Under the pieces are notes generated by a model. The model had not been told where the DNA came from. It saw only the letters and a list, made by a program, of their open reading frames with translations, and did not search any database. A stretch of DNA of 64,000 nucleotides, from positions 128,080 to 192,079 of the forward strand of contig MHKF01000012.1 in the NCBI GenBank assembly GCA_001818315.1, given 5' to 3'. Numbering within the stretch: the stretch's first letter is position 1; each line of letters starts with the position of its first letter. The position numbers were made by a program, and so were the translations under genes. Below are positions 13,831 to 62,477 of the stretch, in pieces. This DNA comes from Candidatus Kerfeldbacteria bacterium RIFCSPLOWO2_02_FULL_42_19. GTDB taxonomy: Bacteria > Patescibacteriota > Patescibacteriia > HO2-48-17.

Positions 13831-13922
13831 CCAAAAGAGAGGAGGGGAAAACTATAGCTTTCGAAGCACTCACAATGCACAGTGTGCTGAGAAAGTTTTG
13901 TTTTCCCCTCCTCTCTTTTGGA
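13831..13922. repeat. Family-B hairpin repeat, copy 1 (between the convergent rpoD and TrmB genes; terminator-like)
   Basis: aaaagagaggaggggaaaactatagctttcgaagcactcacaatgcacagtgtgctgagaaag…cccctcctctctttt; the core is shared with 22319-22411, 32641-32721 (opposite orientation) and 62393-62477. Confidence 0.6.
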
Positions 13923-13986
13923 AATTGCCTTCAATTCGTTGCAAATGTTGATTTTGGACACACGACACCACAAATAACATTTCCGG

Positions 13987-14745
13987 TTATACGGAATGTG
14001 TCGCTTTTAGCATTTTCCAGACGAACAGGAAAAATTGTTGAAACATCTCGACAATACTTGACGACTCGATGATCACGCAGTAGGGGTCGTCTTCTTGCAA
14101 CGAGAAAAACGCCATCGCGTTTCCATAGATTGTGACCGAACAGGCAAATGGAAATTCATCAGGCAAGTATCTCACTTCCCTCAATTTATTTGAGTCTAAA
14201 TAATCATGAGCGGCATAAGGAAGGATAAGTTTTGTAAAGACGCCCATTTCCTCCCGATTCTTCAGCCAGTTTGGGAAATATTTTGGAAGGTACTTTAACA
14301 GATCCGGCTGGGATGTCGCGTAGATCTGTTTGATTTTCCTCTCTCGCAATGTTTCCAAAATATGCTCCAGACCAGTTTTGATTCCATCTAACCCGACATA
14401 GATTTTAGCTACTGGTACGTTTATGCTCCGCGGAATAATCGCTTGGAGTTGCGGCATGATCTCATTGATTGCCTCTTCTTTCTCCTTCAACTGGTTTACG
14501 AATTGATTTGTGCTTTCCGGCGTGAAGTAGGCTACGTTGTTTTTCCGTATTCGTGAGACAAATCCCTGTTGTTGCAAAGATTCGAGCGTGAGATAGACCG
14601 TAGTGCGGGGGATTCCTGTCTCTTTGGCGATTTCAAATGCCGTAGTTTCGACCTGTTTCAATAAAAAAATATAGATTACAGCTTCATTTTGGGTCAGGCC
14701 GTAGAGCCTCAACGCGTGAATTATATCCTTATTGTCGTTTTTCAT
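13987..14745 (-). CDS. TrmB-family sugar-responsive transcriptional regulator
   Basis: N-terminal wHTH (LRLYGLTQNEAVIYIFLL…TAFEIAKETGIPRTTVYLTLESLQQQGFV) plus a C-terminal sugar-binding-like domain, ~250 aa. Confidence 0.6.
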   Translation of the reverse strand: MKNDNKDIIHALRLYGLTQNEAVIYIFLLKQVETTAFEIAKETGIPRTTVYLTLESLQQQGFVSRIRKNNVAYFTPESTNQFVNQLKEKEEAINEIMPQLQAIIPRSINVPVAKIYVGLDGIKTGLEHILETLRERKIKQIYATSQPDLLKYLPKYFPNWLKNREEMGVFTKLILPYAAHDYLDSNKLREVRYLPDEFPFACSVTIYGNAMAFFSLQEDDPYCVIIESSSIVEMFQQFFLFVWKMLKATHSV

Positions 14746-14907
14746 GACAACAGTATAATAGCATATTTTTCTCTATTTTGCAATCTATTCTGTTATGCTG
14801 TTATTATTATGAGTCAAATTCTATGACTATTGATATTCATGCGTGTATCCTGTCTATAAAATTAAAGAATGATCCAAAAGTTCTTTCTTTAAGAAGGGGA
14901 ATCATGA

Positions 14908-15429
14908 TTGTTTATCAGAAAAAGGAGCAATGAGATGAATATCAATGAGCTTATCGATCAACTTGCGAAGCAAAACATGAGTGAACACTTCACGGCTAGT
15001 GTGGCGTACGGGTTTATGCGTGGGAAAACCCTGGAGATTGATCAAGCCCTGAAAAATGCCAACGAGGAAGATCGATTCTCCCTCGCCGTTAACCTCTTCC
15101 GTCTTTGGTTCGAGGCAGGCATGTGCCGCGAGCAGGAGCGATTAGAAGAAGCTAAGAGTGTCTTCGGTGAGATCTTCGAGAAGCACGGAGGCAGGTACGT
15201 GATGTATACGCTCACCGCCGATCGCAAACAGCTCCGCGTGTGGTACGGTCGTCCCGCTTGCATGGCACCCGACCACGTCGACAGTTGCGGACATAACCTG
15301 CTGTTCGGAGTCTATGGACATCCTGAGGTCGTACAACGGTACCTCAAAGCGTTTCGCGAGATACACAATCTCGACGAGATTCGGGTACCAAATGGCGTAT
15401 TGCTCTACATGCATTGGTCTGACCGCTAG
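14908..15429 (+). CDS. hypothetical protein; GC-rich orphan
   Basis: 173-aa ORF with clearly higher GC and different codon usage than its flanks; no family recognised. Confidence 0.45.
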   Translation: MFIRKRSNEMNINELIDQLAKQNMSEHFTASVAYGFMRGKTLEIDQALKNANEEDRFSLAVNLFRLWFEAGMCREQERLEEAKSVFGEIFEKHGGRYVMYTLTADRKQLRVWYGRPACMAPDHVDSCGHNLLFGVYGHPEVVQRYLKAFREIHNLDEIRVPNGVLLYMHWSDR

Positions 15430-15525
15430 TACCTTGGTCTTTGAACGCCCGCCGTTTATATAAAGGGTCTGTCGCCGAATACCATTTCTGTAAACGGCGA
15501 TAGACCCATAAACGGCGATAGTAAC

Positions 15526-15566
15526 AACCCGCTATGTCCTTTGGATCTTAGCGGGTTCTTTTTTTC
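15526..15566. terminator. Rho-independent terminator (bidirectional, between the 14908 gene and the znuB 3' end)
   Basis: aacccgct-[16-nt loop]-agcgggtt followed by cttttttt. Confidence 0.6.
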
Positions 15567-15589
15567 AAAATTGAGGGTTCATCAAATAC

Positions 15590-16384
15590 CTATCTTTTGG
15601 TGAATAAACTGAATATGAAAAAGATGAGGGCGATGATAACAATCGTGCCGCCAGGAGCAAGGTCGAGGAAGTAAGAAAGTACGAGGCCGGTGATCGTTGC
15701 TGTGAGCGAAAGTAGAATGGCAATTAAGAATGTCTGTCTAAAACTCCTTCCAAATTGGATAGCGGTTGTAACTGGAATCACCATAAGGGCGCCAATTAAG
15801 AGTATGCCAACAATTCGCATAGCCAGTGCTACTGCAATGCCGGCGAGCATCACCAGCAATGTATTGAAAGTTTTTGTTGGAAGCCCTTCTGCATACGCGA
15901 GTTCCTCATCAAAAGTTACGAGAAAGAATTCTTTGTAAAAAATGAGAATGACAGTAAGCGCAACAATGCCAAGGATAATAATGATGGCGACTTCATGCGG
16001 TGCGACGGTCGCAATACTTCCAAAGAGAAAACTCGCGAGATCGGTATTAACACCGTGACCGAGATTCACAAGTACTATCGCTATCGCGAGACTGCCAGAA
16101 AGAAAGAGCGCGAGTACTGCTTCGCTTAAAATTTTTTTATTTTGTCGAATCTGTTCTATCCCGAGCGCTGCGACGATTGTTATGACGACTGCTGCGATGA
16201 CGGGATTGATATTCAATAGTAAGCCAAGAGCAACGCCAACAAGTGCAATATGAGCGAGTGTATCGGCCATATACGCATATCTGCGCATCACAAGAAACGT
16301 TCCGATCATCGGAGCGATCAATGCAATCGCTATGCCCGCAGCGAGCGCCCGTATCATGAAATCATATTGTAGGAAATCGATCAT
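15590..16384 (-). CDS. metal (Zn/Mn) ABC transporter permease, ABC-3 family (ZnuB/MntB-like)
   Basis: ~8 TM segments; MADTLAHIALVGVALG is typical of ABC-3 permeases; downstream of an ATPase gene. Confidence 0.75.
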   Translation of the reverse strand: MIDFLQYDFMIRALAAGIAIALIAPMIGTFLVMRRYAYMADTLAHIALVGVALGLLLNINPVIAAVVITIVAALGIEQIRQNKKILSEAVLALFLSGSLAIAIVLVNLGHGVNTDLASFLFGSIATVAPHEVAIIIILGIVALTVILIFYKEFFLVTFDEELAYAEGLPTKTFNTLLVMLAGIAVALAMRIVGILLIGALMVIPVTTAIQFGRSFRQTFLIAILLSLTATITGLVLSYFLDLAPGGTIVIIALIFFIFSLFTKR

Positions 16385-16420
16385 AATGTTGTATGAAGAT
16401 CAAAAGGTTGGATTTTGCAC

Positions 16421-17194
16421 TTACGAGTATTTTTCAAGTGCTTCATGTTCGTGCGTCACTGGCTTAGCTGTTTTTTCGTAGAATTGTTCTACATATTCTT
16501 TTTTGTTAAATGATCGTGACGGTAACTGGCACATGAGTGTTTTATTCAAACAAAGGATCGTTTCGACTTGTTCAGCTACGACATCAATATCGTGAGAAAC
16601 CAGAAGAATCGTGATGCCAAATTTTTTGTTGAGTGTGTTCAATAAAGTATAGAAAGTTTTTTGCGCTTTGATGTCCACTCCAATTGTTGGTTCGTCGAGA
16701 ATGAGTATTTTTGGTTCGCGAGCAAGAGCGCGAGCAATGAATACCCGCTGACGTTCACCGCCTGATAGAGTTCCGATCAGTCGCTTTTGAAGATGCGTGA
16801 CGTTGGTGAGCGCCATACTTTGCTCAATGATTTTTTTGTCTTGGCGAGTTTGCCAATGAAAAACGCCACGTCTTGCTGTGCGGCCGCTCGCAACAATTTC
16901 CCACACCGTTGCTGGAAATTTTTTTTCAATGTCTGCCATTTTCTGCGGCACGTATCCCATTTCAAAATGTTTTTTCGCTGTTTTAATATCGTGACCAAAA
17001 ATAGAAATAGTACCAGCGTTCGGTTTAAGAAGTCCAAGAATAAGTTTCAGGAGCGTCGTCTTACCGCCGCCGTTAGGTCCGATAATTCCAACATATGCTC
17101 CTCTGGGTATCTGGAAAGAAAGATGTTCTAGAATCGTTGTTTGAAGGTATTGAAATGAGACGTCATTGAATTCAATACAGTGAATCGTGTGCAT
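16421..17194 (-). CDS. metal ABC transporter ATP-binding protein (ZnuC-like)
   Basis: Walker A GIIGPNGGGKTTLL, signature LSGGERQRV, Walker B ILILDEPT. Confidence 0.8.
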   Translation of the reverse strand: MHTIHCIEFNDVSFQYLQTTILEHLSFQIPRGAYVGIIGPNGGGKTTLLKLILGLLKPNAGTISIFGHDIKTAKKHFEMGYVPQKMADIEKKFPATVWEIVASGRTARRGVFHWQTRQDKKIIEQSMALTNVTHLQKRLIGTLSGGERQRVFIARALAREPKILILDEPTIGVDIKAQKTFYTLLNTLNKKFGITILLVSHDIDVVAEQVETILCLNKTLMCQLPSRSFNKKEYVEQFYEKTAKPVTHEHEALEKYS

Positions 17195-17350
17195 ACAATT
17201 TTGAAAAAAACCTTCGAGAACTCCGTGTCACCGGGGATATCAAGCAGGGTGCCAGAGTTCTTGAAGGCTGTGAAAAAAGTAATTTATGTTTTCATTGTAA
17301 CTTATCTTACTCAAAAAGCAAGTGTAATTCTTTTTCATTATTTTTTTGGA

Positions 17351-17713
17351 TTACGCAATGAGTTGATGAATCAGACTTACGAATTTGAGCCATTCTGCAG
17401 TGTTTTCCATGAGTATTATATGACCTTGTGTTGTAATGGCGTATTCTTTTTTTCGTGGGCCACGTTTTGATCGTTTCCATTGTGCCTCGATGAGTTTTTG
17501 CTTTTCAAGTTTGTGCAGGAGCGGGTAGAGCATGCCAGGTGAACATTTTAAAGCGCCGTTTGAATGAGTGCGTATCCAGTGACGGAGATAATACCCGTGC
17601 ATGGGTTGCTCTCTCAGCGCTGAAAGGATAATCGTTTCTGTTGTGCCTTTGAGGAGCTCTTTATGATTGAGTGTTATGTGCGGTAGAGAGCGAGGTTCGT
17701 CGTTGGATTTCAT
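17351..17713 (-). CDS. PadR-family transcriptional regulator
   Basis: ETIILSALREQPMHGYYL…GMLYPLLHKLEKQKLIEAQWK is a typical PadR winged helix; it is the first gene of an apparent PadR-znuC-znuB operon. Confidence 0.65.
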   Translation of the reverse strand: MKSNDEPRSLPHITLNHKELLKGTTETIILSALREQPMHGYYLRHWIRTHSNGALKCSPGMLYPLLHKLEKQKLIEAQWKRSKRGPRKKEYAITTQGHIILMENTAEWLKFVSLIHQLIA

Positions 17714-18040
17714 AAAACTTGATTTTTTCCTTGCGCTTTCGAAGCAGGGTTATTCATGGGATGAGTGAAAAATGGTATGTTACCTCTCGATATACCAATT
17801 ATATCTTACTACGATATAGTGTCAAGATTCTTCGAAGTACGAAGTGGCTTTTGTTGAGGATGCATCGAGAATGAGATCGGTTTTTTTTCGTATTTTTATG
17901 GACTGTAAAAGTATTCCCTCTTGAGCCGAAGTTTTTCCGTAATTGACCCACCAAAATTTTTATGGTAATCTTTAGCTGTCTCATGAATGTTTTTGCACAT
18001 TTATAATTTTTATTTTCGTCTTTCAGTACGAAAGACACGA

Positions 18041-18116
18041 TCCGCGGTAGCTCAGTTGGTAGAGCAGTTGGCTGTTAACCAATTGGTCGTGGGTTCGAGT
18101 CCCACCCGCGGAGCCA
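18041..18116 (+). tRNA. tRNA-Asn (anticodon GUU)
   Basis: 7-bp acceptor stem tccgcgg/ccgcgga, D-arm TAGCTCAGTTGGTAGAGC, anticodon loop cuGUUaa, T-arm GGTTCGAGTCC, encoded CCA; 76 nt. Confidence 0.85.
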
Positions 18117-18122
18117 TCACTT

Positions 18123-19649: not shown

Positions 19650-20926
19650 AAAAAAATGTAACACAATTTTCTGGAGTCAGGCGTGAATCGCGCTCTATTC
19701 CTTGGGCAGCCCTTTTTCATATCTATCAACCAGATCACTGGGATCCGCGAGTGATTCGAAAGGTTGCAAAAGAAGCGTATTATCCCTTTCTACGCATGTT
19801 GCAAAAAAATCCGAATCATAAAATCACTTTGAATATTTGTGCTTCCCTTACCGAACAGTTGAGTCGTCACGGTATGTCGGACCTTTTGCGTGGCTTTGCT
19901 CTCTGCGCACAGCGCGGTCAAATTGAGTTTACTCAAACAGCAAAGTATCATCCTATTTTACCGAAATTACCGCGTAAGGAAATTATCCGGCAGTTTGAAT
20001 TGAACTATGCAACGAATCGAGCGTTTTTTGGAGAGGCTTTCGCGCCTCGAGGTGTGTTTTTACCGGAGATGTGCATGAATCACAATGTCGCTTCGATTAT
20101 TGCTGAGCTTGGATATGAGTGGATTGTGTTGGATGAAATTGCGTATGCCGGACGCATCGGCGATGTTTCGTTTCGTTATAAATATTACGATCCGAAGAGC
20201 ACATTATTGCTTTTATTCCGTAATAGAATCTTAAGCGATGTATTTTTCCGGTTGGATTTGAATACTGTCAGCGAATTTCGTAATTTTATACTCGAAAAAT
20301 TAGCGCCGCAGTCACCGCTCGTTACTGCGCTTGATGGAGAAAATCTTGGGCATCATCGCAAAGGTATGGACGGGATATATCATAAGCTTGTGCAAAGTCG
20401 ACCGTTTGTAACTATGACCTATTCTGAACTTCTCGCAACACTGCCACTCAGGAAACTCTCACATCCTTTACATCCTTCAAGTTGGGCTTCGCGTTCCGAA
20501 GAACTCGCCCGCGGAGTGCCTTATATTCGTTGGGATGATCCTACCAATCCGATTCACACGTTACTCTGGGAGATTACCCGAGGGGTCTTGAAGATTTTTT
20601 ATAAACACCAGGCGAAAACCGTTTTATGCGGTGAAGCACGGATTCGACTCGATCAGGCACTGAACAGCGATCAGTATTGGTGGGCATCCACACAACCTTG
20701 GTGGAGTGTGGAAATTCTTTTTGCAGCCCTCGATGAGTGGAAACAGGTACTTTCGCAACTCGCTGGCGTGCCTCAACAAGAGATTCAAAAGATTATGCGA
20801 CTTATCACTCGCACGAAACGTCTCGTACGTACATGGCAAGACAAGGGCGTTGCGGAGCGTCGCCGACTCGCCTATCTACGCACCGTGCAGGAGGCAAGTT
20901 TTCTTGGAGGTAAAACAGTTTTATGA
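19646..20926 (+). CDS. glycoside hydrolase family 57 protein (alpha-glucan-active), copy 1
   Basis: GH57 blocks HIYQP…, IEFTQTAKYHPILP, GVFLPEMC (nucleophile Glu region), WIVLDE; overlaps the next gene by 4 nt. Confidence 0.6.
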   Translation: MKKNVTQFSGVRRESRSIPWAALFHIYQPDHWDPRVIRKVAKEAYYPFLRMLQKNPNHKITLNICASLTEQLSRHGMSDLLRGFALCAQRGQIEFTQTAKYHPILPKLPRKEIIRQFELNYATNRAFFGEAFAPRGVFLPEMCMNHNVASIIAELGYEWIVLDEIAYAGRIGDVSFRYKYYDPKSTLLLLFRNRILSDVFFRLDLNTVSEFRNFILEKLAPQSPLVTALDGENLGHHRKGMDGIYHKLVQSRPFVTMTYSELLATLPLRKLSHPLHPSSWASRSEELARGVPYIRWDDPTNPIHTLLWEITRGVLKIFYKHQAKTVLCGEARIRLDQALNSDQYWWASTQPWWSVEILFAALDEWKQVLSQLAGVPQQEIQKIMRLITRTKRLVRTWQDKGVAERRRLAYLRTVQEASFLGGKTVL

Positions 20927-22317
20927 TTTGGACTAATTTTTTACATATTTATCAGCCGCCGACGCAGAAGCAACGATGGGTGCGTAAAATCGCTAACGAA
21001 AGTTACCGCAAACTCATTCGTGGATTTTTGGATAATCCCAAAGCCAAAGTTACGATGAATGTGAATGCTGTACTTCTGGAACTTTTCGATCGATATGGAT
21101 GTCAGGATGTGATTGCCGGATTGCGTGAACTTGGCGAGCGCGGACAGATTGAATTTACGGCATCAGCAAAATATCATCCTTTTTTGCCGCTTATGCCTGA
21201 GACTGAAATTGTTCGTCAGATCGGACTGAATACGGAAACAAATCGCAAGTATTTAGGTCCGGCGTATCAACCCAAAGGTTTTTTCCCGCCTGAAATGGCA
21301 TATAATCGGCGTGTCGGTGAGATTGTGAGTAAGCTCGGTTTTCGTTGGATTATTCTTGATGAACTCGCTTCTGCGCCTGCAACAGGGACACTGTCTGCGA
21401 GCGCACTGTATGAAATTAAAGGCATCCCCGATTTTTATGTTTTTTTTCGTGATCGCGCCATGAGCTTTCGAATTCTTTCTGCACAGGTTGGCGTGAGTGT
21501 GTTTTCAAGTAACATGTTGTTGGATTTTTTAGGTGATCGTTTGAATCGTAACGAATATTTACTTACGGCAATGGACGGCGAAACATTTGGACATCATCGA
21601 CCGGGTCTTGAGATGTTATTGTTTGAGATTTACAAAGCAGAGGGCATTACTTCTCTCACGATTTCTCAGCTTTTTGAACATTTTCACGAAAAACGTGTTA
21701 TTGATCCGCGTGATTCCACGTGGGCATTGATGCGTCGGGATTTGGAACGTAATACACCTTTTTCGCGTTGGAAGAATGAACAGAACGAAATTCAAATGTG
21801 GCAATGGGAGCTTACCGATTTGGCGATTCGGAATGTGGAGCACTTTGAACGCGCTAAGCAGGTTACTGCGGCACAGCGTGCAGCGCTCGATCGCGCGCTG
21901 CACAGCGATCAATATTGGTGGGCTTCCGCTGAGCCGTGGTGGAGTATTGAAATGATCGAGGCAGGTGCAAAAGAGTTACGGGATGTTGTTTTGAGTCTGA
22001 GTGTTTCAGCTGCTACAAAGCGTAAAGCAGAAGAACTCTACAAAAATATTTTGTATCGAGCTTTTGATTGGCAGCGGTCAGGCAAAGTCGAAACGATGGC
22101 GAAAATGGCGGATGAAGATGTGACGCAGCGCATTACGACCGAGATTCCTTATATTCCGGAAGAAGAATTTAATACGATCGTTGCGAATTTGACGAAGCAA
22201 ATGAAGCAGGCTGCAGATGCTTTAGAATACGAACGCGCAGCGCAGATTCGCGAGCGCATTAGCGAGTTGAATGCAAAGAAAGACGAAATTACACAACCGA
22301 AAGAGTATCGACCGTGA
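20923..22317 (+). CDS. GH57-family protein with a C-terminal UVR (UvrB/UvrC-type) domain
   Basis: GH57 blocks as in the upstream paralog, plus a C-terminal ANLTKQMKQAADALEYERAAQIRERISEL UVR motif. Confidence 0.6.
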   Translation: MIWTNFLHIYQPPTQKQRWVRKIANESYRKLIRGFLDNPKAKVTMNVNAVLLELFDRYGCQDVIAGLRELGERGQIEFTASAKYHPFLPLMPETEIVRQIGLNTETNRKYLGPAYQPKGFFPPEMAYNRRVGEIVSKLGFRWIILDELASAPATGTLSASALYEIKGIPDFYVFFRDRAMSFRILSAQVGVSVFSSNMLLDFLGDRLNRNEYLLTAMDGETFGHHRPGLEMLLFEIYKAEGITSLTISQLFEHFHEKRVIDPRDSTWALMRRDLERNTPFSRWKNEQNEIQMWQWELTDLAIRNVEHFERAKQVTAAQRAALDRALHSDQYWWASAEPWWSIEMIEAGAKELRDVVLSLSVSAATKRKAEELYKNILYRAFDWQRSGKVETMAKMADEDVTQRITTEIPYIPEEEFNTIVANLTKQMKQAADALEYERAAQIRERISELNAKKDEITQPKEYRP

Positions 22318-22318
22318 A

Positions 22319-22411
22319 GCGAGGAGTTGAGTGTAGGGATAGTATAGCTTTCGAAGCACTAACATTGTACTGTGTGCTGAGAAAGTATATTATCCCTACA
22401 CTCAACTCCTC
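22319..22411. repeat. Family-B hairpin repeat, copy 2 (after the GH57-UVR stop)
   Basis: gaggagttgagtgtagggatagtatagctttcgaagcactaacattgtactgtgtgctgagaaagtat…atccctacactcaactcctc. Confidence 0.6.
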
Positions 22412-22488
22412 GTGCAATCGATTTGGATTATTGCAACGATGCGCCTTCTCGGTCATAATAATATCAAGATGTTCATTTGTGATTTTTA

Positions 22489-23955
22489 ATGTACATGAAA
22501 GCATTGCGTGTTTTATTTATTGCTTCTGAATTGAATCCACTCGCAAAAGTTGGAGGTCTTGCGGATGTTATTGGAGCTTTGCCGAAAGCTCTCAAAAAGC
22601 AAGGTGTGGATGTGCGAATCATGATCCCAAAGTATAGCATGATTGATCCCAAGCAATATCCGATGCAGCGTATTGCGCGACGCATTCCGGTGCGCCTCTA
22701 TAATCGCACTTACTTGGTTAATGTTTTTACAACGAAACTTCCGGGCACTTCCATCACGGTATATCTCATCGATCAAAAGGATTTCTTTGCAGACGGCGGA
22801 GTGTATTATTCAAAGACAGCTCTTGTAGGTACTTTTAAAGAAATCGAGAGATTTTTGTTTTTCGGTCGTGCGGCCCTTGAAAGCCTTCCGCATCTCGGCT
22901 GGAAGCCAGATATTTTGCATTGTAATGATTGGCACACCGCGTTTATTCCTGTATGGCTTAAGACCATCTATTGTTGTCATCATCCATTTTACGCTTCACT
23001 TCGCACGTTATATACCATTCATAATCTTGCGAATCAAGGCATTGGTGATCTGAAGCTTTTAAAAGTTGCGAATGTTTCTACGCGAGCTCTCCCGAGTCTT
23101 GAACGTGATGCTCGGAATAATGATATTGATCTCATGGTACAAGGTATTCTCACAAGCGACGCGATCAATACGGTGAGTCCAACGTATGTGAAGGAGATTC
23201 TGACACCGGAATACGGTGAGCGTTTAGACCCAGTCCTCAAACTCCGCCAGCGTGATCTTTATGGGATTTTGAACGGTATTGATACGGATGTTTTTAATCC
23301 TTCCACTGATGTGCATATTCGACAGCGTTATTCGGTGAAGAGTTTTGAACAGAAGCAGATCAATAAGGCGGCCTTGCAACAAATGTGTGGTTTTCATGTC
23401 GATCCGCGTGTACCCGTTTTTGGTATGGTATCGCGTTTGACTCATCAAAAAGGATTCGATCTTTTAATCAAACTGCGTAAGGAACTTATAAAACTTCCTA
23501 TGCAACTTGTCATTTTGGGCACTGGCGATGCAACGATTGAAAAAGCCCTTGTGGCGCTCAGCAAACGATCGTCGCGCACGATGTGTATTTTTTTGAAATT
23601 TGATGCCAAGCTCGCGCAGATGATTTATGCTGGCAGTGATTTTTTTCTTATGCCTTCTCGGTTTGAACCGTGTGGCCTTGGACAAATGATTGCTATGCGC
23701 TATGGTACTCCGCCTGTTGTACGATCGACTGGAGGACTTGCTGATACCGTGCGGCACCTCAAAACAGGTGTCGTCTTCCATGATTATGCCGCCAAAGCAC
23801 TTCTTGCTGCTTTACACACGGCGATCCGTATCTATCACAATCCTCACGTGTATACTGCGTTAGCGAAAGCCGGCATGAGACAAGATCTTTCGTGGGGCAG
23901 TTCTGCTCAAGTGTATATGCGATTATATCGTAAACTCCTTGCATCCCATTCATAA
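22489..23955 (+). CDS. glgA: glycogen/starch synthase (GlgA-like), copy 2
   Basis: IASELNPLAKVGGLADVIGALP; GT-B C-terminal SRFEPCGL. Confidence 0.8.
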   Translation: MYMKALRVLFIASELNPLAKVGGLADVIGALPKALKKQGVDVRIMIPKYSMIDPKQYPMQRIARRIPVRLYNRTYLVNVFTTKLPGTSITVYLIDQKDFFADGGVYYSKTALVGTFKEIERFLFFGRAALESLPHLGWKPDILHCNDWHTAFIPVWLKTIYCCHHPFYASLRTLYTIHNLANQGIGDLKLLKVANVSTRALPSLERDARNNDIDLMVQGILTSDAINTVSPTYVKEILTPEYGERLDPVLKLRQRDLYGILNGIDTDVFNPSTDVHIRQRYSVKSFEQKQINKAALQQMCGFHVDPRVPVFGMVSRLTHQKGFDLLIKLRKELIKLPMQLVILGTGDATIEKALVALSKRSSRTMCIFLKFDAKLAQMIYAGSDFFLMPSRFEPCGLGQMIAMRYGTPPVVRSTGGLADTVRHLKTGVVFHDYAAKALLAALHTAIRIYHNPHVYTALAKAGMRQDLSWGSSAQVYMRLYRKLLASHS

Positions 23956-23964
23956 CATTATTCT

Positions 23965-24894: not shown

Positions 24895-24924
24895 ATATTC
24901 GGGAATTTTCGTCCTGTAATTGAA

Positions 24925-25090
24925 AGAGTGAAGAACGGCGAGCATATGTTTTTTCAAATGCGTTGTGATTACCAACTTTATGAGATAGAGAGGAAAGTGT
25001 GTACGAGAGCAACTTTTTCAAACGAATATCATTCATGTTTGGATATCACAGCATTTGAAAAAACATATGCTCGCCGTTCTTCACTATTCA
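24925..25090. repeat. Family-A element, copy 2 (conserved core in a different, locus-specific perfect ~28-bp stem)
   Basis: Arms agtgaagaacggcgagcatatgtttttt / aaaaaacatatgctcgccgttcttcact; the core aligns with 4567-4746. Confidence 0.6.
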
Positions 25091-25110
25091 TATATCAAAA
25101 ATAAGGAGAT

Positions 25111-25308: not shown

Positions 25309-25360
25309 GTTGGAGCCTAAACACAGCACAACCTCTTTACTTTGGTAGCTAAAGAGGTTG

Positions 25361-27184: not shown

Positions 27185-27257
27185 TCAAGTCTTCTGTGAC
27201 TTGAGATGAGGGTATAACGTTAGTTTTGTGTCGTCAAGCATGTCTTAAAAACGCAAT

Positions 27258-27298: not shown

Positions 27299-27310
27299 TT
27301 TGAGAATGTT

Positions 27311-28946: not shown

Positions 28947-28947
28947 G

Positions 28948-32486: not shown

Positions 32487-32640
32487 GATCGATCGTTTGA
32501 CTCGTTTTTTTTCTCTTTCTGTGAGCAGGTTTTGCCTGCTCCGCTTCTTGAGATTGTGATGTTCGCTCTCGTAGTTTCAAGAAGCTGAGTACTTGTATCG
32601 GGACTGTCGCCGAATGTTATTTTTTGTTCAATACACGAAA

Positions 32641-32721
32641 CAAAAGAGGAGGATGACTCTCCTTTCTCAGCACACTGTGCAGTGTCAGTGCTTCGAAAGC
32701 AAGAGTCATCCTCTTCTTTTG
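32641..32721. repeat. Family-B hairpin repeat, copy 3 (inverted orientation)
   Basis: aaaagaggaggatgactctcctttctcagcacactgtgcagtgtcagtgcttcgaaagcaagagtcatcctcttctttt. Confidence 0.6.
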
Positions 32722-32895
32722 TTTTGCACATTGCATAAGAAAACGGTATTCGTGGACAGTCCCATATCGCGTCGTTATTTTCTTTTTGAGTAGAATGTTT
32801 TATATTTTAAGCAGTTGACTATTTTTATCTGTTGTTTTTTTATTCTCGGTGTGAAGAACAAAATATCCATACATCGTAGGTTTTGTTTCGCGAGC

Positions 32896-35679: not shown

Positions 35680-36810
35680 ATGCTCGGAGCTTTTCCCTCA
35701 CAAATGATTGAAAAACTTTTTACTGCCGGTCATATTCATGGAGCTGCTTTGCAGAATATACAACCTTCTTCGCTTGATCTTACACTTAGCGAGGAACTTT
35801 ATCGCGTGGAAGGCGTTTTTTTGCCACAGCGCGGAGAGCACGTACGTGATTTGATTGACATGTTTCACGCGCAGTCTGTAACTTTTGCTGAACCGCTTCA
35901 ATGTCACGGAGTGTATCTGTGTCGTCTGAATGAGCGTTTAGTGCTACCCGAGAGCGTCTATGCGTATGCGAATAACAAGTCGTCTACCGGTAGGATTAAT
36001 TTGCAGGTGCGTCTGCTTTGCGATGGCGTTCCGAAGTTTGATCAGATTCCCAAAAGCTACTGTGGCGAGTTGTGGATTCTTGTTGCGCCGCATTCATTTA
36101 GTATTGCTTTGCAACCAGGACAGTCGCTCAATCAGATGCGTTTTTTCAACGCGGATACGCGGCTTTCGGAAGAAGAACATCGCGCGCTCTATAGTTTTCA
36201 ACCGCTTTTGTATCAATTTGATGGAAAGTCATTCCCTGCAGCCGAAGTACTGTTTGATAAAGGTGGCGGTATCACGATGACGATTGATTTTGATCAGGAT
36301 ATTATTGGGTATGTTGCATTTCCGAATTCCGCAAAAGTTTTGGACTATGCGCGAAGGGATTATAAACCCGAAGATTTTTTTGAGCCTATTTGTCGACTGA
36401 AAAAGAATCAGTTAGTATTGAATAGAGAGGGATTTTACATTTTTTCCACGAAGGAATACATCGCTGTGCCGCCGGAATTTTCGGTCGAGATGATTGCGTA
36501 TGATCCAACCAAAGGCGAGTTCCGTACGCACTATGCTGGATTTTTTGATCCCGGCTGGGGTTTTGGAGCGCGCGGCGAACTGAAAGGTACGCCGGCGGTA
36601 CTCGAAGTGTACCCGCACGATCATAACTTTATCTTCCGTGATGGACAGCCGATTTGCAAAATGGTCTACGAGCGACTTGCGACGTTTCCAGATCGTATCT
36701 ACGGCGTAGGCGACCTCGGTTCACATTATCAGCATCAGCGCGGCCCGTGCCTTTCCAAACATTTTGTGCAGCACGCAAAAGTAGCTGCGAGTGTTTTGAG
36801 TCAAATATAA
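35680..36810 (+). CDS. dCTP deaminase-like protein, long tandem-domain form (dUTPase superfamily)
   Basis: N-terminal IQPSSLDLTLSEELYRV (cf. Dcd VQPASVDLRLG), SSTGRINLQV (GRSS.ARLG-like), ALQPGQSLNQMRFF; the second half carries THYAGFFDPGW (a DPGW motif). Confidence 0.5.
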   Translation: MLGAFPSQMIEKLFTAGHIHGAALQNIQPSSLDLTLSEELYRVEGVFLPQRGEHVRDLIDMFHAQSVTFAEPLQCHGVYLCRLNERLVLPESVYAYANNKSSTGRINLQVRLLCDGVPKFDQIPKSYCGELWILVAPHSFSIALQPGQSLNQMRFFNADTRLSEEEHRALYSFQPLLYQFDGKSFPAAEVLFDKGGGITMTIDFDQDIIGYVAFPNSAKVLDYARRDYKPEDFFEPICRLKKNQLVLNREGFYIFSTKEYIAVPPEFSVEMIAYDPTKGEFRTHYAGFFDPGWGFGARGELKGTPAVLEVYPHDHNFIFRDGQPICKMVYERLATFPDRIYGVGDLGSHYQHQRGPCLSKHFVQHAKVAASVLSQI

Positions 36811-36975
36811 TTTTGTTGCAGTGAGAGGGTATATTGCTGGGCGACTCTTTTTGCGAGCGGGTACGGTTCGAGCGAAATGCAATGGAGCGAGAGAGCGAAC
36901 AAAAAGTGTCAGTGAGTCCACACGCTGGGTGGACGAACGGCACAGCAATATACCCTCTCACTGCAACAAAATTTT
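36809..36975. repeat. ~165-bp element: a perfect 31-bp inverted repeat flanking a ~100-nt core, between the dcd-like and thyA-like genes
   Basis: aattttgttgcagtgagagggtatattgctg … cagcaatataccctctcactgcaacaaaatttt; the core contains gagagagcgaacaaaaagtgtcagtga, which resembles the Family-A core block agagaggaaagtgtg. Confidence 0.5.
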
Positions 36976-53175: not shown

Positions 53176-53185
53176 TTAGAAAAAC

Positions 53186-56730: not shown

Positions 56731-57842
56731 AATTTCTCATCATTGATACATATTATCCCTCTTTTCTTAAAAGTTTCCGTCATAAGTATCCAGAATCATT
56801 GGGGATGTCTTATCAGGAACAACGGCAATTTTTACTTGATCAAAAATTCGGTACTTCGGATTTCTATTCTGGAAATTTCAAAAAGCTTGGGCATCAAGCT
56901 GAAGATATTATCGTGAATGATCTTTATCTTCAGTTTCGGTGGGCTCAAGAAAGAAATTTTTTTGTTTCTGAATCACGTTTTAAGGCTCGCATGCGGGTTT
57001 TACTTCGGGCTTATCATCTTCTTGGTCCACCGCGATGGATTCAAGAGATTGCTTTAGCTCAGATTCAAGAATATAAACCAGACATTATCTATATCCATAA
57101 TTTGACTATTTTTAGCCCTGATTATTTTCAAAAAATAAAAAAACAATGCCAATTCGTAGTTGGTCAAATTGCTTGTCCTCTACCGCCAAAAATATATTGG
57201 GAAAACTACGATCTGATTGTCACTTCATTTCCTCACTTTGTGCAAAGATTTCGCCAGCAAGGCATCAAGAGTGAATATTTAAAAATAGCTTTCGAACCTC
57301 ACATTCTTGACCTCGTTAGCAAACAGCCACGTATTTATAACGTTTCTTTTATTGGTAGTTATTCCTATCATCATAAGGGCGGGACGCAGATTCTGGAAGA
57401 TGTTGCACGGAAAGTGAAAGTTGATTTTTGGGGCCTGAAACAATTTTTCATGTCGCCATTCTCACCGATTGGTCGACGGTATCATGGAAGTGCATGGGGT
57501 CTCGATATGTATACTTTACTTGCTCAGAGCAGAATTGTTATTAACCGTCACATTGGCGCGGCTCAGAACTATGCTAATAACATGCGACTGTACGAATCAA
57601 CCGGAATGGGCGCTCTTTTAATTACTGACATGAAAGACAATTTGAATCATTTATTTCACATCGGCAAAGAGATTATTGCTTATTCGGATGTTGAGGATTT
57701 AGTTGATAAGATTCGTTACTATCTTGAACATGAGAAAGAACGCGCCGAGATTGCTCAGGCTGGACAACAGCGAACTCTTCAGGAGCATACGTATGAAAAC
57801 AGGATGAAGGAACTTTTAACTATTTTAGCAAAATATTTATGA
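56727..57842 (+). CDS. CgeB-like glycosyltransferase, paralog 2
   Basis: Collinear with the upstream paralog (YESTGMGALLITD…IAQAGQQRTLQEH). Confidence 0.45.
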   Translation: MKFLIIDTYYPSFLKSFRHKYPESLGMSYQEQRQFLLDQKFGTSDFYSGNFKKLGHQAEDIIVNDLYLQFRWAQERNFFVSESRFKARMRVLLRAYHLLGPPRWIQEIALAQIQEYKPDIIYIHNLTIFSPDYFQKIKKQCQFVVGQIACPLPPKIYWENYDLIVTSFPHFVQRFRQQGIKSEYLKIAFEPHILDLVSKQPRIYNVSFIGSYSYHHKGGTQILEDVARKVKVDFWGLKQFFMSPFSPIGRRYHGSAWGLDMYTLLAQSRIVINRHIGAAQNYANNMRLYESTGMGALLITDMKDNLNHLFHIGKEIIAYSDVEDLVDKIRYYLEHEKERAEIAQAGQQRTLQEHTYENRMKELLTILAKYL

Positions 57843-58507
57843 ACAAAGACAACCGTAATTATGTTTTTACTTCCGATTCCCTTTCAGAGAGAGATGAATA
57901 CCAGAGGATGGCTAGTTGGATTCCTGGTGGCAGTAGAGTGATTGATTTGGGGAGCGGCGATGGCTCACTTTTAGCGTTATTGCAGAAACGAGGCATTCAG
58001 GGTGAAGGAATTGAAATTGCTGAAAGCGGCGTCGAGATCACAAAAAAGAGGGGTATCAAAGCGCAAATTGGACGAATTGATGTGCCGTTGCCATATAAAG
58101 ATAAAGAATTTGATTATGCTCTTTGTAACGTGACCATACAGATGGTGATGTACCCGGAAGTATTACTGCAAGAAATGAAACGTATTGCAAAGTACCAAAT
58201 CCTTTCCTTTCCTAATTTCGCTTTTCTTCCCAATCGTCTTGACCTACTCATTCGTGGGCGAATGCCTCATTTCATGATTCCTAGTTATAAATGGTATTCC
58301 ACTGGGCATATTCATCAACTCTCTATCAATGATTTTTCCGATCTTTGTAAAGAATTAAATCTCAAAATTCTCGATTCCAAGCATATCCGTCCAGACGTAC
58401 TCAGGCTCCATATCTTCCAAGTCCCACATTTTATCTTAAGACGCTTTCCTAATGTATTCGTTAGTACCGCAATTTTTCTAACAAAAGAAAAGGAAATAGC
58501 GAAATAA
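57839..58507 (+). CDS. MetW-like class I SAM-dependent methyltransferase
   Basis: VIDLGSGDGSLLALL…GIEI…FDYALCNVTIQMV matches the MetW-type MTase pattern. Confidence 0.5.
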   Translation: MNKDNRNYVFTSDSLSERDEYQRMASWIPGGSRVIDLGSGDGSLLALLQKRGIQGEGIEIAESGVEITKKRGIKAQIGRIDVPLPYKDKEFDYALCNVTIQMVMYPEVLLQEMKRIAKYQILSFPNFAFLPNRLDLLIRGRMPHFMIPSYKWYSTGHIHQLSINDFSDLCKELNLKILDSKHIRPDVLRLHIFQVPHFILRRFPNVFVSTAIFLTKEKEIAK

Positions 58508-58590
58508 ATACAATATGTATATCCAAGAAAGATTCATTGTATGAAATCAGCGTATATGTTATATTCTTGCTGAGAATTGTAAAATATAAG

Positions 58591-58950
58591 ATGGCTTACA
58601 TTCTGTTAGTGCTTGCAATAGGAATGAACGTTACCGCACAACTTCTTCTCAAATATGTTGCGAAACAGATGCAATTTTTTGATGTTGCAGTGAATAAAGT
58701 TGTTCTGATAAAAACACTTCTTTTGCAACCGGCTTTTTGGATTGCATTAGTTTCGTATGGCATCAGCTTCGGGCTTTATTTAGTCGTGTTGTCAAAATTA
58801 GAATTGAGTAAAGCCTATCCGATCAGTAGTACTGCTGGCATTGTGCTTATTGTTGTTATATCCATTTTTACCTTTCATGAACCTTTGACGTTTCCCAAAA
58901 TTCTAGGCGTAGGATTAGGTTTGCTCGGTATTTTGTTATTATTTAAATAA
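58591..58950 (+). CDS. small 4-TM EamA/SMR-like transporter (ArnE/ArnF-like Und-P-sugar flippase subunit)
   Basis: 119 aa, four TM segments, directly upstream of a GT2 gene. Confidence 0.45.
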   Translation: MAYILLVLAIGMNVTAQLLLKYVAKQMQFFDVAVNKVVLIKTLLLQPAFWIALVSYGISFGLYLVVLSKLELSKAYPISSTAGIVLIVVISIFTFHEPLTFPKILGVGLGLLGILLLFK

Positions 58951-58952
58951 GC

Positions 58953-60356
58953 ATGCACTATCAGGCTATTGTTGAATTTATGAACCAACAAGCTGCTCGT
59001 CGTACGAAGTGGCGCGAGCGCAATTGGTATTATTACGAAGATCTCGTCAGTTTTTTACAATATAATGTCCCCCAAAATAGCCGAGTATTAGAAATTGGCT
59101 GTGGTGATGGCTATCTTTTACATCAGCTTCAACCCATGTATGGGGTTGGTATTGATATTGCCCCGGCCATGATTGAACAAGCTCAACAAAAATACCCTGA
59201 CTTGCATTTTTTTGTTATGGATGTTGAGCAACTGAAACTCCAAGAAACTTTCGATTATATTATTCTCTCTGATACTATTGGTTATTTTTATGATGTACAG
59301 AAGGTGTTAAATAATTTACGCAGCGTTTCTCATAGCGGGACAAGAGTGCTTATTACGTATCAAAATTTTTTGTGGTCACCGTTACTTCAACTCGTGGAAC
59401 TGCTCCATCTCAAAATGCCCTCTAAGAAATTGAATTGGCTCAATGTAGGCGATTTAGTGAATTTACTTAACTTAGAAAATTTTGAGGTTGTAAAAAGTGG
59501 TCATCGCTTACTTCTTCCATGGTATATTCCTTTCCTTTCAAAATTCATGAACAAATATTTGGCACACCTACCCTTATTGAATCAGTTGTGTTTGACGAGT
59601 TTTGTTATTGCCCGTCCTTGCATTCCAACGCAAGAATATAGTGTGAGTGTGATCATTCCAGCGCGCAATGAACGCGGTAATATTGAACAAGCTGTTCAAC
59701 GTATTCCTCACTTAGGGAAACACACAGAAATTATTTTTGTTGAAGGTCATTCCAATGATAATACTTTAACCGAAATTCAACGAGTGTGTCAGAACTATGC
59801 TGACAAACTTGACATCAAATATGCTGTACAAGACGGCAAGGGCAAAGGTGACGCGGTACGTAAAGGCTTTGCTATGGCTCACGGTGATATCTTGATGATT
59901 CTCGATGCTGATTTAACTGTTCGTCCAGAAGATTTGCCGAAATTTTATCAAGCTATCGCTTCGGGGAAAGGTGAATTTATCAATGGTTGTCGTTTAGTAT
60001 ACCCTATGGAAAAAGAGGCTATGCGTATTTTGAATATGATCGCAAATCGTTTTTTCTCTGTAACTTTTTCATGGTTATTGGGTCAGCGCATTAAAGATAC
60101 TCTCTGTGGCACGAAAGTCATTTGTAAAAAAGCCTATGAGCAATTAGCAAGTAATCGAGCATTTTTTGGTGATTTCGATCCATTTGGTGATTTTGATTTG
60201 TTATTCGGTGCAGCGAAGTTAAATTTAAAAATCGTAGAGTTACCCATACGTTACCAGGCACGAGTATACGGTTCAACGAATATTTCACGTTTCCGACACG
60301 GGTTTATTCTTTTGAAAATGGTCTTGTTTGCGATGAATAAAATTAAATTTATTTAA
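58953..60356 (+). CDS. fusion protein: N-terminal class I SAM methyltransferase plus C-terminal GT2 polyprenyl-phosphate glycosyltransferase (DPM1/ArnC/GtrB-like)
   Basis: VLEIGCGDGYLLHQL…ILSDTIGYF (MTase); VSVIIPARNERGNIEQAV…ILDADLT (GT2 DxD). Confidence 0.65.
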   Translation: MHYQAIVEFMNQQAARRTKWRERNWYYYEDLVSFLQYNVPQNSRVLEIGCGDGYLLHQLQPMYGVGIDIAPAMIEQAQQKYPDLHFFVMDVEQLKLQETFDYIILSDTIGYFYDVQKVLNNLRSVSHSGTRVLITYQNFLWSPLLQLVELLHLKMPSKKLNWLNVGDLVNLLNLENFEVVKSGHRLLLPWYIPFLSKFMNKYLAHLPLLNQLCLTSFVIARPCIPTQEYSVSVIIPARNERGNIEQAVQRIPHLGKHTEIIFVEGHSNDNTLTEIQRVCQNYADKLDIKYAVQDGKGKGDAVRKGFAMAHGDILMILDADLTVRPEDLPKFYQAIASGKGEFINGCRLVYPMEKEAMRILNMIANRFFSVTFSWLLGQRIKDTLCGTKVICKKAYEQLASNRAFFGDFDPFGDFDLLFGAAKLNLKIVELPIRYQARVYGSTNISRFRHGFILLKMVLFAMNKIKFI

Positions 60357-60412
60357 AAACTCATGCACTGGAAACAGTATGTTTTATTTGCACTTCTTAT
60401 AAGCTTCAACGC

Positions 60413-62353
60413 GTGTCGGCCTTCGATAATTCAAGAAATGAGTGTATGCAAGAAATAATATTCGTTACGATCATTCTTTTTGTCTGGGGTATTTTAAGTC
60501 TCGGTATCGGGCACTCCATCTTACGTAAATTATCTTGGCAAGCGAATGACGCTGTTTCTATCAGCATCGCTTATTTATTGGGTTTTGCTGTGTTGGCATA
60601 TAGTTTGGTGCTGTTAGGTTTAATCAAACTCTTTACGCTTCCGGCAGTCAGTATCGTAGGAGTTATCTATGTCGTACTTTTTGGACGAGGCGGTTTGCGC
60701 CAATTTTGGCAGTTCGTCATCAGCAGTGTGCATTTGAGTAAAAATATCTGGCGTACGCATCGTTGGTTGATAGTGCCGTTATTAGCTGTGGCAGTGTTTG
60801 TTCTCGTGAATTATCTTGCAAGTTTTGCTCCACCCACAGCACGCGATGAAATTTCTTATCATCTCCCAGAGGCGCGTGCACTCGTCTCAAGTCAGTCATT
60901 AGATTTTCTTACTAATGCTAAAAATTTTTATACGAATCTTCCACTCCTCTTAGAGGTCGTGTATGCCTGGGGTATTTTGGTGTCAGGCTATTCGTTGGCG
61001 CACGTCATGCACTACAGTATTTGGTTAGCTTTTTGCTTGTTTATATTTGGTTGGTTATACGAATATTTTGGTCGAACAACCGCGACGTGGTCGATAGTCG
61101 GTTTGTTTTTACTCACGCAAGTTGTGACTACGGCCACGAGCGGTTTAGTAGATACTGCCTATATGGTGCTCGAAATTATGAGCGTCTGTTTATTCATAAC
61201 TTGGTTTCATAGCAAACAAAATACAACTCTTGCCTTGGCTGGTATTATGATCGGCTTCGCTTTATCTATCAAATATTCTCCTCTCTTTACCGCTAGTTTA
61301 CTCGCTGTATTCATTGCAGGTGTCAGCTTTCCCCGACGTCAGTGGAGACCATTCATTTGGTTTGTATTACCTGTTGTCTTGGTTGGAGGATTTTGGTACA
61401 TCAAAAATTTCATTGTTTATTTCAATCCTACCTATCCGCTCCTCTTCGGACATGCCGACTATGGTGAAGCGGAATATCTTTCATTGATCGCAGCGATCCA
61501 AGATTTTGTTGTACCGCGAACGTTGTGGAATTATGTACAGATTCCGGTAACTTTTTATTTAGCTTGGACCAAGAGTGATTATCCACTCCTGTCGTTATCC
61601 TATCAACCCCAAAGCCTGATTGTATTGTTCAGTCTTGCCAGTTTGCCTTGGCTAATTGCACTCAAACGAGCCAGATTGGTCGTTCTGATACTGTTTTCTT
61701 ATATGATTGTCTATAGTTTGTATTGGTTCTTTATTGCGACTCATCAAGTACGTTTTTTGGATACAATTACTATTGTGCTGCTGTTGTTAGCAGTTATTGC
61801 TATTACCCGCTTGCCACGATATTGGAAATATGTGCCGGTCGCCATTTTATTCATTGCCATCATCGGTATTGGCTTACGTTACGATATTCGGAGTTATTTG
61901 CTCCATGTGATAGACGCCGCTATCGCTCAGCGCTGGATGCGTAAAAATGAAATTTATTACTTGATTGATCACATGAGTAAAAAGGATTATTTGGAATCGC
62001 ACTTTGGTTGCGGGGTATTAGCTCTTGACTACCTGGATACTACAAATCCAAACGTCAAGGTGTTAGATAATTGGACCGCATGGCATGATCACCAATTTAA
62101 GTTTTACGATCAGCACAGTCGTTTCATCAGTTTTCCGCCTGATTTGCCAGTTACAGATGTCAACAGCTTTATTCAAAGTAATGGTATTGGCTATATTTAT
62201 TTTGATACGAGAGCTAAAAATGATTTTGCGAATAGTACCGATCCATTTTTCAGGGAACACTATCGCGCCCGGTCAAACCAAGAACAACAATTGCTCGACG
62301 GCGCTACTTTGGTATTTGAATCAACTACCTGTCAACTCCATCGTTTACGATAA
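60413..62353 (+). CDS. polytopic GT-C-like membrane protein (ArnT/PMT-like glycosyltransferase candidate)
   Basis: ≥12 TM segments; ARDEISYHLPEA loop with a DE motif after the early TM segments; follows the GT2 and flippase genes. Confidence 0.5.
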   Translation: MSAFDNSRNECMQEIIFVTIILFVWGILSLGIGHSILRKLSWQANDAVSISIAYLLGFAVLAYSLVLLGLIKLFTLPAVSIVGVIYVVLFGRGGLRQFWQFVISSVHLSKNIWRTHRWLIVPLLAVAVFVLVNYLASFAPPTARDEISYHLPEARALVSSQSLDFLTNAKNFYTNLPLLLEVVYAWGILVSGYSLAHVMHYSIWLAFCLFIFGWLYEYFGRTTATWSIVGLFLLTQVVTTATSGLVDTAYMVLEIMSVCLFITWFHSKQNTTLALAGIMIGFALSIKYSPLFTASLLAVFIAGVSFPRRQWRPFIWFVLPVVLVGGFWYIKNFIVYFNPTYPLLFGHADYGEAEYLSLIAAIQDFVVPRTLWNYVQIPVTFYLAWTKSDYPLLSLSYQPQSLIVLFSLASLPWLIALKRARLVVLILFSYMIVYSLYWFFIATHQVRFLDTITIVLLLLAVIAITRLPRYWKYVPVAILFIAIIGIGLRYDIRSYLLHVIDAAIAQRWMRKNEIYYLIDHMSKKDYLESHFGCGVLALDYLDTTNPNVKVLDNWTAWHDHQFKFYDQHSRFISFPPDLPVTDVNSFIQSNGIGYIYFDTRAKNDFANSTDPFFREHYRARSNQEQQLLDGATLVFESTTCQLHRLR

Positions 62354-62392
62354 TGGAGCTGCCGTTGAATCCCGTTTCTTGTACAATGTGCA

Positions 62393-62477
62393 AAGCAAAA
62401 GAGGAGGAAGGCGAGAGCTTCCGAAGCACTGACAGTGCACAGTGTGCTTCGGAAGCTCTCGCCTTCCTCCTCTTTTG
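62393..62477. repeat. Family-B hairpin repeat, copy 4 (between convergent genes)
   Basis: aaaagaggaggaaggcgagagcttccgaagcactgacagtgcacagtgtgcttcggaagctctcgccttcctcctcttttg. Confidence 0.6.

Follow-up and report, generated by a model that had tools for sequence, protein, structure and literature searches.

What four long hairpins with one conserved loop are, and how they came to lie at the 3′ ends of genes, is the question raised by a 64,000-nt stretch of DNA from Candidatus Kerfeldbacteria, a lineage of the Candidate Phyla Radiation (CPR)/Patescibacteria. This whole stretch, called the window below, contains ~58 open reading frames (ORFs), has a G+C content of 42.6% and is densely coded with housekeeping genes, among them those for primase, sigma factors and glycogen metabolism and a polysaccharide cluster. 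The hairpins, termed Family B, are probably the central stem-loop of one subfamily of miniature inverted-repeat transposable elements, or MITEs, in Candidatus Kerfeldbacteria, the hairpin being tolerated and possibly used as a bidirectional terminator. A MITE-type object is the expected kind for bacterial repeats; the only really odd part is the presence of copies that lack terminal inverted repeats (TIRs).

The core of Family B, GAAGCACTNACANTGNACNGTGTGCT, occurs exactly four times in the window, at the positions given in a preliminary description of this DNA (Table 1), and a chance origin is ruled out by its absence from all of 100 shuffled sequences. A covariance model (R1), built from 27 Family-B members and run on the window without filters, recovers the same four sites at E ≤1e-20. 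Its next best match has an E-value of ~0.6, and it thus finds no fifth copy in the window. All four copies cap long hairpins with near-perfect stems of 27–35 bp, whose folding energies range from −53 to −71 kcal/mol (z −7 to −13 relative to shuffles). The preliminary description credited three of the four copies with the same outer stem; AAAAGAGGAGG is exact only in copy 4, while copies 1 and 3 carry variants of it (AAAAGAGAGGAGG in copy 1, AAAAGAAGAGG/AAAAGAGGAGG in copy 3). Copy 1 is built from a perfect 27-bp outer stem, an inner stem CTTTC/GAAAG, a tandem GA/GA, the pair AGCAC/GTGCT and a 14-nt loop. The hairpin of copy 4 (62396–62477) is a perfect 34-bp stem in which Watson–Crick pairs stand in place of the GA/GA internal loop.

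Table 1. Window coordinates of the four Family-B copies and of a TIR-bounded mini-element (TSD, target-site duplication)
Feature	Position	Strand	Core	Hairpin arms	Details
Copy 1, TIR-less Family-B hairpin	13826–13926	+	13863–13888 (+)	13826–13852/13900–13926	covariance-model hit of 96 bits; fold −65.3 kcal/mol, z −11
Copy 2, TIR-less Family-B hairpin	22320–22412	+	22353–22378 (+)	22320–22346/22386–22412	27-bp stems; no T-tract
Copy 3, complete putative MITE of 164 bp	32600–32763	−	32669–32694 (−)	32620–32660/32702–32742	central Family-B hairpin at 32641–32721
Copy 4, complete putative MITE of ~175 bp with decayed TIRs	62355–62529	+	62423–62448 (+)	62396–62429/62444–62477	aligns to full elements over 62349–62533
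Mini-element of 43 bp, little beyond the two TIRs GGGTCTGTCGCCGAATACC...CGGCGATAGACCC	15465–15507				exact TSD ATAAA (15460–15464 and 15508–15512)

Copies outside the window were collected by scanning metagenome contigs for the core, which gave 27 hits at 22 loci (numbered with L). When Family-B loci were aligned with 130 nt of flanking sequence, conservation ran well beyond the hairpin. Full elements measure ~162–186 bp, are non-coding (overlapped only by spurious ORFs) and end in TIRs of 16–24 bp, GGGWCTGTCGCCGAATRC and GGGWCTGTCGCCGAATRCNNTTTC. Two subterminal module types are found among them in every combination. Copy 3 carries the TIR GGGWCTGTCGCCGAAT at either end; copy 4 has it in decayed form, and it recurs in at least 12 related B elements. 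Matches between the window and the other loci are limited to the repeats, the flanks being unrelated. Copy 3 has TIRs GGGACTGTCGCCGAATG (32600–32616) and GGGACTGTCCACGAATA (32747–32763, reverse strand) with 0 and 3 mismatches, is 92.5% identical to the element at L006 over 161 bp, and is flanked by the pentamers GTATC (32595–32599) and ATATC (32764–32768), which match at four of five positions. In copy 4 the left TIR, GGAGCTGCCGTTGAAT, retains 11 of 16 matches, the right end reads ATTCAGCTGCAGTCC, and the flanking pentamers match at three of five positions. The hairpins lie where they had been described; the repeat itself is larger in copies 3 and 4 once the TIRs are included.

The same TIRs bound elements with very different interiors. 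A TIR scan of GTDB species representatives found at least 107 loci, nearly all of them in metagenome-assembled genomes (MAGs) of Patescibacteria: Kerfeld-, Magasanik- and Falkowbacteria, the Parcubacteria group and unnamed bins. In all, the loci collected contain at least 114 TIR-bounded elements, in discrete size classes from 37 to ~240 bp. The smallest, of 37 bp, is a perfect palindrome; classes of 44, 53, 75, 85 and ~130 bp follow, then the dominant class of 160–164 bp, the B type of 172–186 bp and a class of 207–242 bp. An exact 5-bp direct repeat flanks 50 of the 111 elements with usable flanks (45%), against 1.4% in a control that combined the left flank of one element with the right flank of another, and none of these 111 has a flanking repeat of 6 bp or more. 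The pentamers are AT-rich (ATTAA, TTATA, ATAAT, CTTAA and others); a stop codon, or the complement of one, is frequent in them. A target-site duplication (TSD) of fixed length on TIR-bounded elements demonstrates transposition. Together, the TIRs and the 5-bp TSD are the signature of a MITE that would be moved by a transposase recognising ends of ~18 bp, and thus argue for an inverted-repeat transposase, whether cut-and-paste or copy-and-paste, rather than for mobilisation by a REP-associated tyrosine transposase (RAYT). In B-type elements the TSDs are weaker: four of 12 have at most one mismatch (two exact, two one-off), against 3.3% in controls. Together with their more diverged TIRs, this suggests that these are older insertions.

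The mini-element listed in Table 1, which lies between genes at 14908–15429 (+) and 15590–16384 (−), shows that the TIR family was active in this genome in the past. Judged by what usually defines a MITE, the family consists of short, non-coding elements with TIRs, a TSD of fixed length and many dispersed copies; copies 1 and 2 have no TIRs.

Several further observations concern the wider TIR family. The 160–164 bp form aligns end to end across Kerfeldbacteria, Magasanikbacteria and unnamed MAGs and has the superfamily TIR GGGNCTGTCGCCGAATRCNNTTTC; examples, from a range of L032–L138, are L036 1900–2061, L039 5002–5162 and L044 1–161. Its internal blocks AAATTTTGAGG-hairpin-GCCGAAAAATTTTGA are conserved, and 16 of 41 pairs show arm-to-arm covariation. 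In the MAG H43-bin112_1 (JBBTVV01..., for example L080, L081, L082 and L104) most TIR hits lie 25–55 nt from the end of a contig, many contigs having one at either end, and the repeat is evidently abundant and uniform enough there to fragment the k141 assembly. L004 6149–7313, which is also present in reverse in L022, has a GDSL-lipase gene (6332–7144, minus strand) enclosed by two B-type elements that are identical to each other and whose core, AGTACTAACAATACACAGTGTGCT, is slightly diverged. The pair and its gene resemble a composite transposon, without a clear TSD.

The placement of Family B is consistent with insertions that survive where they do little damage. All 27 of 27 copies are intergenic. 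Of 21 intergenic regions with Family B, 10 are convergent, compared with 16% of all regions in the same DNA (p = 6e-4), whereas the wider TIR family has no such enrichment (13/77 against a background of 14%). About nine copies lie between tandem genes, the core running with transcription in five and against it in four, and two are in divergent regions. The ends of elements are often within 0–3 nt of stop codons. In the window, the preliminary description rightly placed two copies between convergent genes (copies 1 and 4), but its statement that all four directly follow stop codons applies to copies 2 and 4 and not to copies 1 and 3. Copy 1 starts 64 nt past the stop codon of a sigma-70 gene (12397–13761, +) that converges on a TrmB-like gene (13987–14745, −). 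Copy 2 lies 3 nt past the stop of the GH57-UVR gene (20923–22317, +), upstream of a glycogen-synthase-like gene (22489–23955, +). Copy 3, with its core on the minus strand, has a plus-strand ORF on either side and lies 114 nt past an unverified ORF of 125 aa. Copy 4, as a full element, starts 1–2 nt past the TAA of the gene at 60413–62353, between convergent neighbours at the end of the polysaccharide cluster.

A path to this distribution can be proposed. A transposase acting in trans on the 18-bp ends would move the elements; it is probably of the DDE type, a Tn3-like enzyme being a lead only. With AT-rich targets that contain stop codons, and with selection against hits in genes and promoters, the surviving insertions would come to lie directly behind stops, in no fixed orientation and frequently between convergent neighbours. 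On transcription, the polypurine/polypyrimidine palindrome would probably act as a bidirectional terminator or as a hairpin that protects the 3′ end. Such a role would explain why convergent enrichment is seen in Family B alone, unlike the wider TIR family. The same placement could equally reflect the survival of insertions where harm is least.

It is from anatomy and position that a role in termination or at the 3′ end seems probable for the B hairpin. In 21 of 27 B copies, including window copies 1, 3 and 4, the hairpin base reads CCTCCTCTTTT(G/T)YTTT on both strands, giving a layout of A-tract, GC-rich stem and T-tract, with at least four T, whichever strand is read. This A-tract/stem/T-tract design recurs in further hairpins at gene ends in the window, whose stems are shorter (13–20 bp). 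Canonical intrinsic terminators have stems of ~5–14 bp and loops of 3–8 nt. A scan of the window for consensus terminators was uninformative (17 found against 16 expected), and its limit on loop length excludes the Family-B hairpins.

The stems themselves vary in a mirrored fashion. In an alignment of the 27 copies (A1), 91.7% of helix cells are paired and 28 of 35 pairs change on both sides, which agrees with the earlier statement that the inner stem differs between copies yet stays complementary. Double-sided changes number 113 cells against 33 in shuffles, with none of 500 shuffles as high, and the signal is lost when the partners are slid by 1–3 columns. Pairing is perfect in the stems of many copies, and an indel in one arm has its counterpart in the other. 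There are few one-sided G-U changes, and the numbers of G-T (15) and A-C (11) mispairs are similar, so that the mispairs give no sign of one strand having been selected as RNA. The wider 160–164 bp family has the same symmetric covariation, TIRs included. Covariation here is not proof of RNA structure, because mirrored change is also expected if both ends bind the same protein. Two processes may keep the stems near-perfect and mirrored: selection for the hairpin, or correction of the palindrome with one arm as template for the other.

Several points weigh against a MITE origin or against the terminator role attached to it. No autonomous parent or transposase with these TIRs was found among the ORFs beside unpaired TIRs, the long repeats shared between loci or the window, all of which are genome fragments only. 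The ORFs beside unpaired TIRs are housekeeping genes, and the sole long repeat common to several loci is an orthologous glycosyltransferase region; the ~58 window ORFs include no transposase of any kind, RAYT included. Nor was any polymorphism between empty and occupied sites found, the population contigs being all identical at copy 2. At copies 1 and 2, an nhmmer search found no remnant of a TIR, and their stems are only 50–57% like the consensus while the apex is 92–95% conserved (50% and 92%, respectively, in copy 2), a pattern not expected from simple MITE decay. Some extra conservation of the core is expected, since copies outside the window were ascertained through it. As to termination, copy 2 and three other TIR-less copies have no T-tract, and stems of 27–35 bp with a loop of 14 nt exceed the usual size of an intrinsic terminator.

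Relatives with 43–68% protein identity are without the element at orthologous sites; collinearity is too poor for a clean empty site. Downstream of GH57-UVR, relatives (L140, and L141 10001–14736) have two extra genes, with spacers of 2–6 nt and no hairpin. These genes encode a protein of ~330 aa with no function assigned and a PHP-domain protein, and precede a second glycogen-synthase-like gene. The corresponding part of the window (20923–23955) is without the two extra genes, and its 171-bp spacer holds copy 2. Downstream of the 646-aa gene, one relative has a convergent methyltransferase gene just 4 nt away. The TrmB-like homologues in relatives show no synteny with the site of copy 1.

A single transposase was found near a TIR. 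This is an IS110-family gene (PF01548 and PF02371, 374 aa) at L072 3195–4742, in Candidatus Falkowbacteria, nested in the AT-rich centre of one TIR-bounded element. It shows that TIR palindromes serve as a target for another mobile element; as the mover of these elements it is incompatible with TIRs and a 5-bp TSD.

The TIR-less copies (window copies 1 and 2, L001, L016 and L017) need a further explanation. Their 38-nt apex, consisting of a bulged G, CTTTC/GAAAG, a tandem G-A, AGCAC/GTGCT and the loop TNACANTGCACAGT, is 87–97% identical to the consensus. Their stems of 27–37 bp match it at only 31–57% of positions, yet are perfectly paired. Even allowing for ascertainment, uniform neutral decay cannot leave 20–22 specified positions intact on randomised stems. 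Three options may account for these copies: selection on an apex bound by protein or RNA, arm-to-arm correction, or entry of the apex into existing hairpins. There is a slim chance that the 38-nt apex is a recognition module in itself, to which a protein of the host or of the element binds, or else a minute unit, mobile or convertible, with the ability to enter hairpin loops. It would be kept on arbitrary perfect stems, and this CPR lineage would have a set of such modular hairpins, produced or kept perfect through arm-to-arm copying. Such a set would comprise Family B, the hairpins of a second family, Family A (4572–4738 and 24924–25088), and the hairpins at 36809–36973 and L008 631–735, all of the others also having unique, perfect polypurine/polypyrimidine stems that surround an interior either conserved or unique; if the idea were true, Family B would be more than the decaying interior of a MITE.

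The suggestion that Families A and B are related did not survive, as local alignments between them score no better than shuffles (z −1.3 to 2.6). The outer stems of Family A (38–42 bp) are unrelated between its two copies and 88–97% self-complementary, and the interior of ~120 nt is 83% identical between copies, without an Rfam hit. Its block TTTGGATATCACAG recurs, duplicated, in the polypurine-stem hairpin L008 631–735. The hairpin at 36809–36973 has a dCTP-deaminase gene on one side and a thymidylate-synthase-like gene on the other. Its 34-bp arms, with 97% complementarity, enclose a 97-nt interior richer in G+C, and its folding energy is −87 kcal/mol; no second copy turned up, either in the window or at any locus examined.

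Three other accounts of Family B compete with the MITE reading. According to one, the hairpin is primarily a functional RNA, either a cis-regulatory motif of 3′ untranslated regions or a small RNA, whose asymmetric apex (a bulged G, tandem G-A and the 14-nt loop UNACANUGCACAGU) is bound while the lower stem needs only to pair, a MITE having merely spread it. We consider this unlikely, although it fits the conservation of the apex on diverged stems, the strong covariation, the very stable folds on the core strand and the retention of asymmetric features in 22 of 27 copies. The covariance model also scores the core strand at 92–99 bits and the reverse strand at 54–74, but this preference arises by construction, the model having been built on the core strand. 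With respect to the upstream gene, the copies show no preferred orientation (5 same, 4 opposite), G-U pairs are rare and no commoner than A-C mispairs, and perfect stems of 27–37 bp with mirrored indels are atypical of selected RNAs; in ~5 copies Watson–Crick pairs have even supplanted the GA/GA internal loop. Neither 729 kb of other Patescibacteria DNA nor the orthologous sites of the relatives examined contain the motif, and it matches no Rfam family. With Rfam 15, only a tRNA in the window scores above its gathering threshold, and relaxed thresholds bring up only sub-threshold models of animal and plant miRNA precursors, in other words of generic perfect hairpins. A different starting point is the entry of a 38-nt apex unit into the loops of pre-existing native hairpins, such as terminators, and once into the centre of a MITE, giving rise to the B type. 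This would account for TIR-less stems that are essentially unrelated to the consensus yet perfect, and for the different conserved apical modules on similar polypurine stems in other hairpins, here and in related genomes; the centre of a palindrome has, moreover, demonstrably been hit by another mobile element (L072). We nevertheless hold it to be improbable. To our knowledge there is no mechanism or enzyme for such a mobile 38-nt unit, copy 2 and L017 share stem features (CGAGGAG..TAGGG..AGTATA) and are thus related beyond the apex, the native hairpins of the window are shorter (13–20 bp), and no apex-free version of any such stem was found.

The least probable account, to which we give very little weight, is that of repetitive extragenic palindromic (REP) sequences or REPINs: palindromic units or doublets that a REP-associated tyrosine (HUH/Y1) transposase would mobilise in the form of single-stranded hairpins. 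REPs depend on RAYT (Y1) enzymes for their movement, leave no fixed target duplication and have a conserved GTAG head; IS110 relatives insert into them. The resemblance to REPs, their mosaics (BIMEs, bacterial interspersed mosaic elements) and REPINs of Enterobacteria and Pseudomonas is nonetheless real. The repeats here are extragenic palindromes at gene 3′ ends, after stops and between convergent genes. Their smallest members are 37-bp perfect palindromes, two kinds of end occur in all combinations in a doublet-like, mosaic architecture, one palindrome holds an IS110-family element, and roles in mRNA 3′-end stability or termination are possible. Against this stand the fixed 5-bp direct duplication at 45% of elements, which HUH/Y1 transposition would not yield, ends that read GGGWCTG in place of a GTAG-type head, and the absence of a Y1 transposase or RAYT from the window and from beside any TIR examined. 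The conserved part noticed initially is, furthermore, the loop and not a REP stem. The preliminary description proposed a REP-like or terminator-associated family; the dispersed, extragenic, palindromic and 3′-biased character (10/21 convergent; T-tract in 21/27) agrees with that, while TIRs of 16–24 bp, the 5-bp TSD and the lack of a RAYT in the window set Family B apart from REPs proper. The alternative put forward there, a protein-binding hairpin, may hold for the conserved apex. Other palindromic systems were also rejected: attC sites, in which the conserved parts are at the base of the stem and not at the apex, and which do not fit with a TSD; and retron msr/msd, CRISPR repeats and IS200/IS605 ends, given the TSD and the lack of reverse transcriptase, Cas or TnpA/TnpB genes nearby.

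The MITE reading of Family B finds its closest parallel in the Correia elements (CREE) of Neisseria, hairpin-folding MITEs that, once transcribed, can be a terminator or a substrate of RNase III. Both are non-coding elements of ~100–200 bp with TIRs and a short target duplication, with tens of copies in a small genome, most of them intergenic and inserted either way round, and in both the whole element is a long imperfect palindrome. They share no sequence similarity: here the TSD is 5 bp and AT-rich, where theirs is TA, the TIR is GGGWCTGTCGCCGAAT, the host belongs to the CPR, and the apex is kept on unrelated stems in the TIR-less copies.

A relationship with Tn3-family elements is a lead only. 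Ends here begin with a run of G (GGGTCTG), and GGGTCTGTCGC resembles the Tn3 inverted repeat GGGGTCTGACGC (first 11 nt). Just ~18–24 nt of the ends are conserved here, and elements are as small as 37 bp; the TAAG that forms the inner part (positions 35–38) of Tn3-family repeats is absent, and plasmid and phage collections gave no match. TIMEs are non-autonomous elements derived from Tn3, with 38-bp inverted repeats homologous to those of the Tn3 family and 5- or 6-bp AT-rich direct repeats (PMC4133298). The elements described here are likewise non-autonomous, with AT-rich insertion sites and 5-bp duplications, and the pair flanking a passenger gene at L004 6149–7313 recalls TIME-COMPs. No Tn3-family transposase was present in the loci examined.

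The core of Family B is absent from 729 kb of other Patescibacteria loci even with 6 mismatches allowed, and gave no hits in GTDB species representatives, where the source lineage is apparently unrepresented; viral contigs and plasmid and phage collections also gave no matches to it. CPR/Patescibacteria genomes are ~1 Mb in size, densely coded and usually called poor in mobile DNA, and the literature searched has nothing on MITEs in CPR bacteria or on these TIR strings. Here a MITE superfamily recognisable by one end sequence, GGGNCTGTCGCCGAAT, extends over Kerfeld-, Magasanik- and Falkowbacteria as well as many unnamed MAGs; its 5-bp TSDs are clear, and it is abundant enough to break assemblies. 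Recognition of the family should aid genome finishing and the annotation of intergenic regions, and its members may be used to trace recent mobility, as well as gene flow from one CPR lineage to another. If the B hairpin terminates transcription in both directions, it would exemplify the spread of terminators by a transposon, in bacteria whose signals for transcription have hardly been characterised.

Apart from the dispersed repeats, the window also contains two diverged tandem paralogue pairs, whose proteins have no Pfam matches: 27284–27491/30012–30219, with 74% DNA identity, and 42683–43602/44065–44984, with 91–92%.

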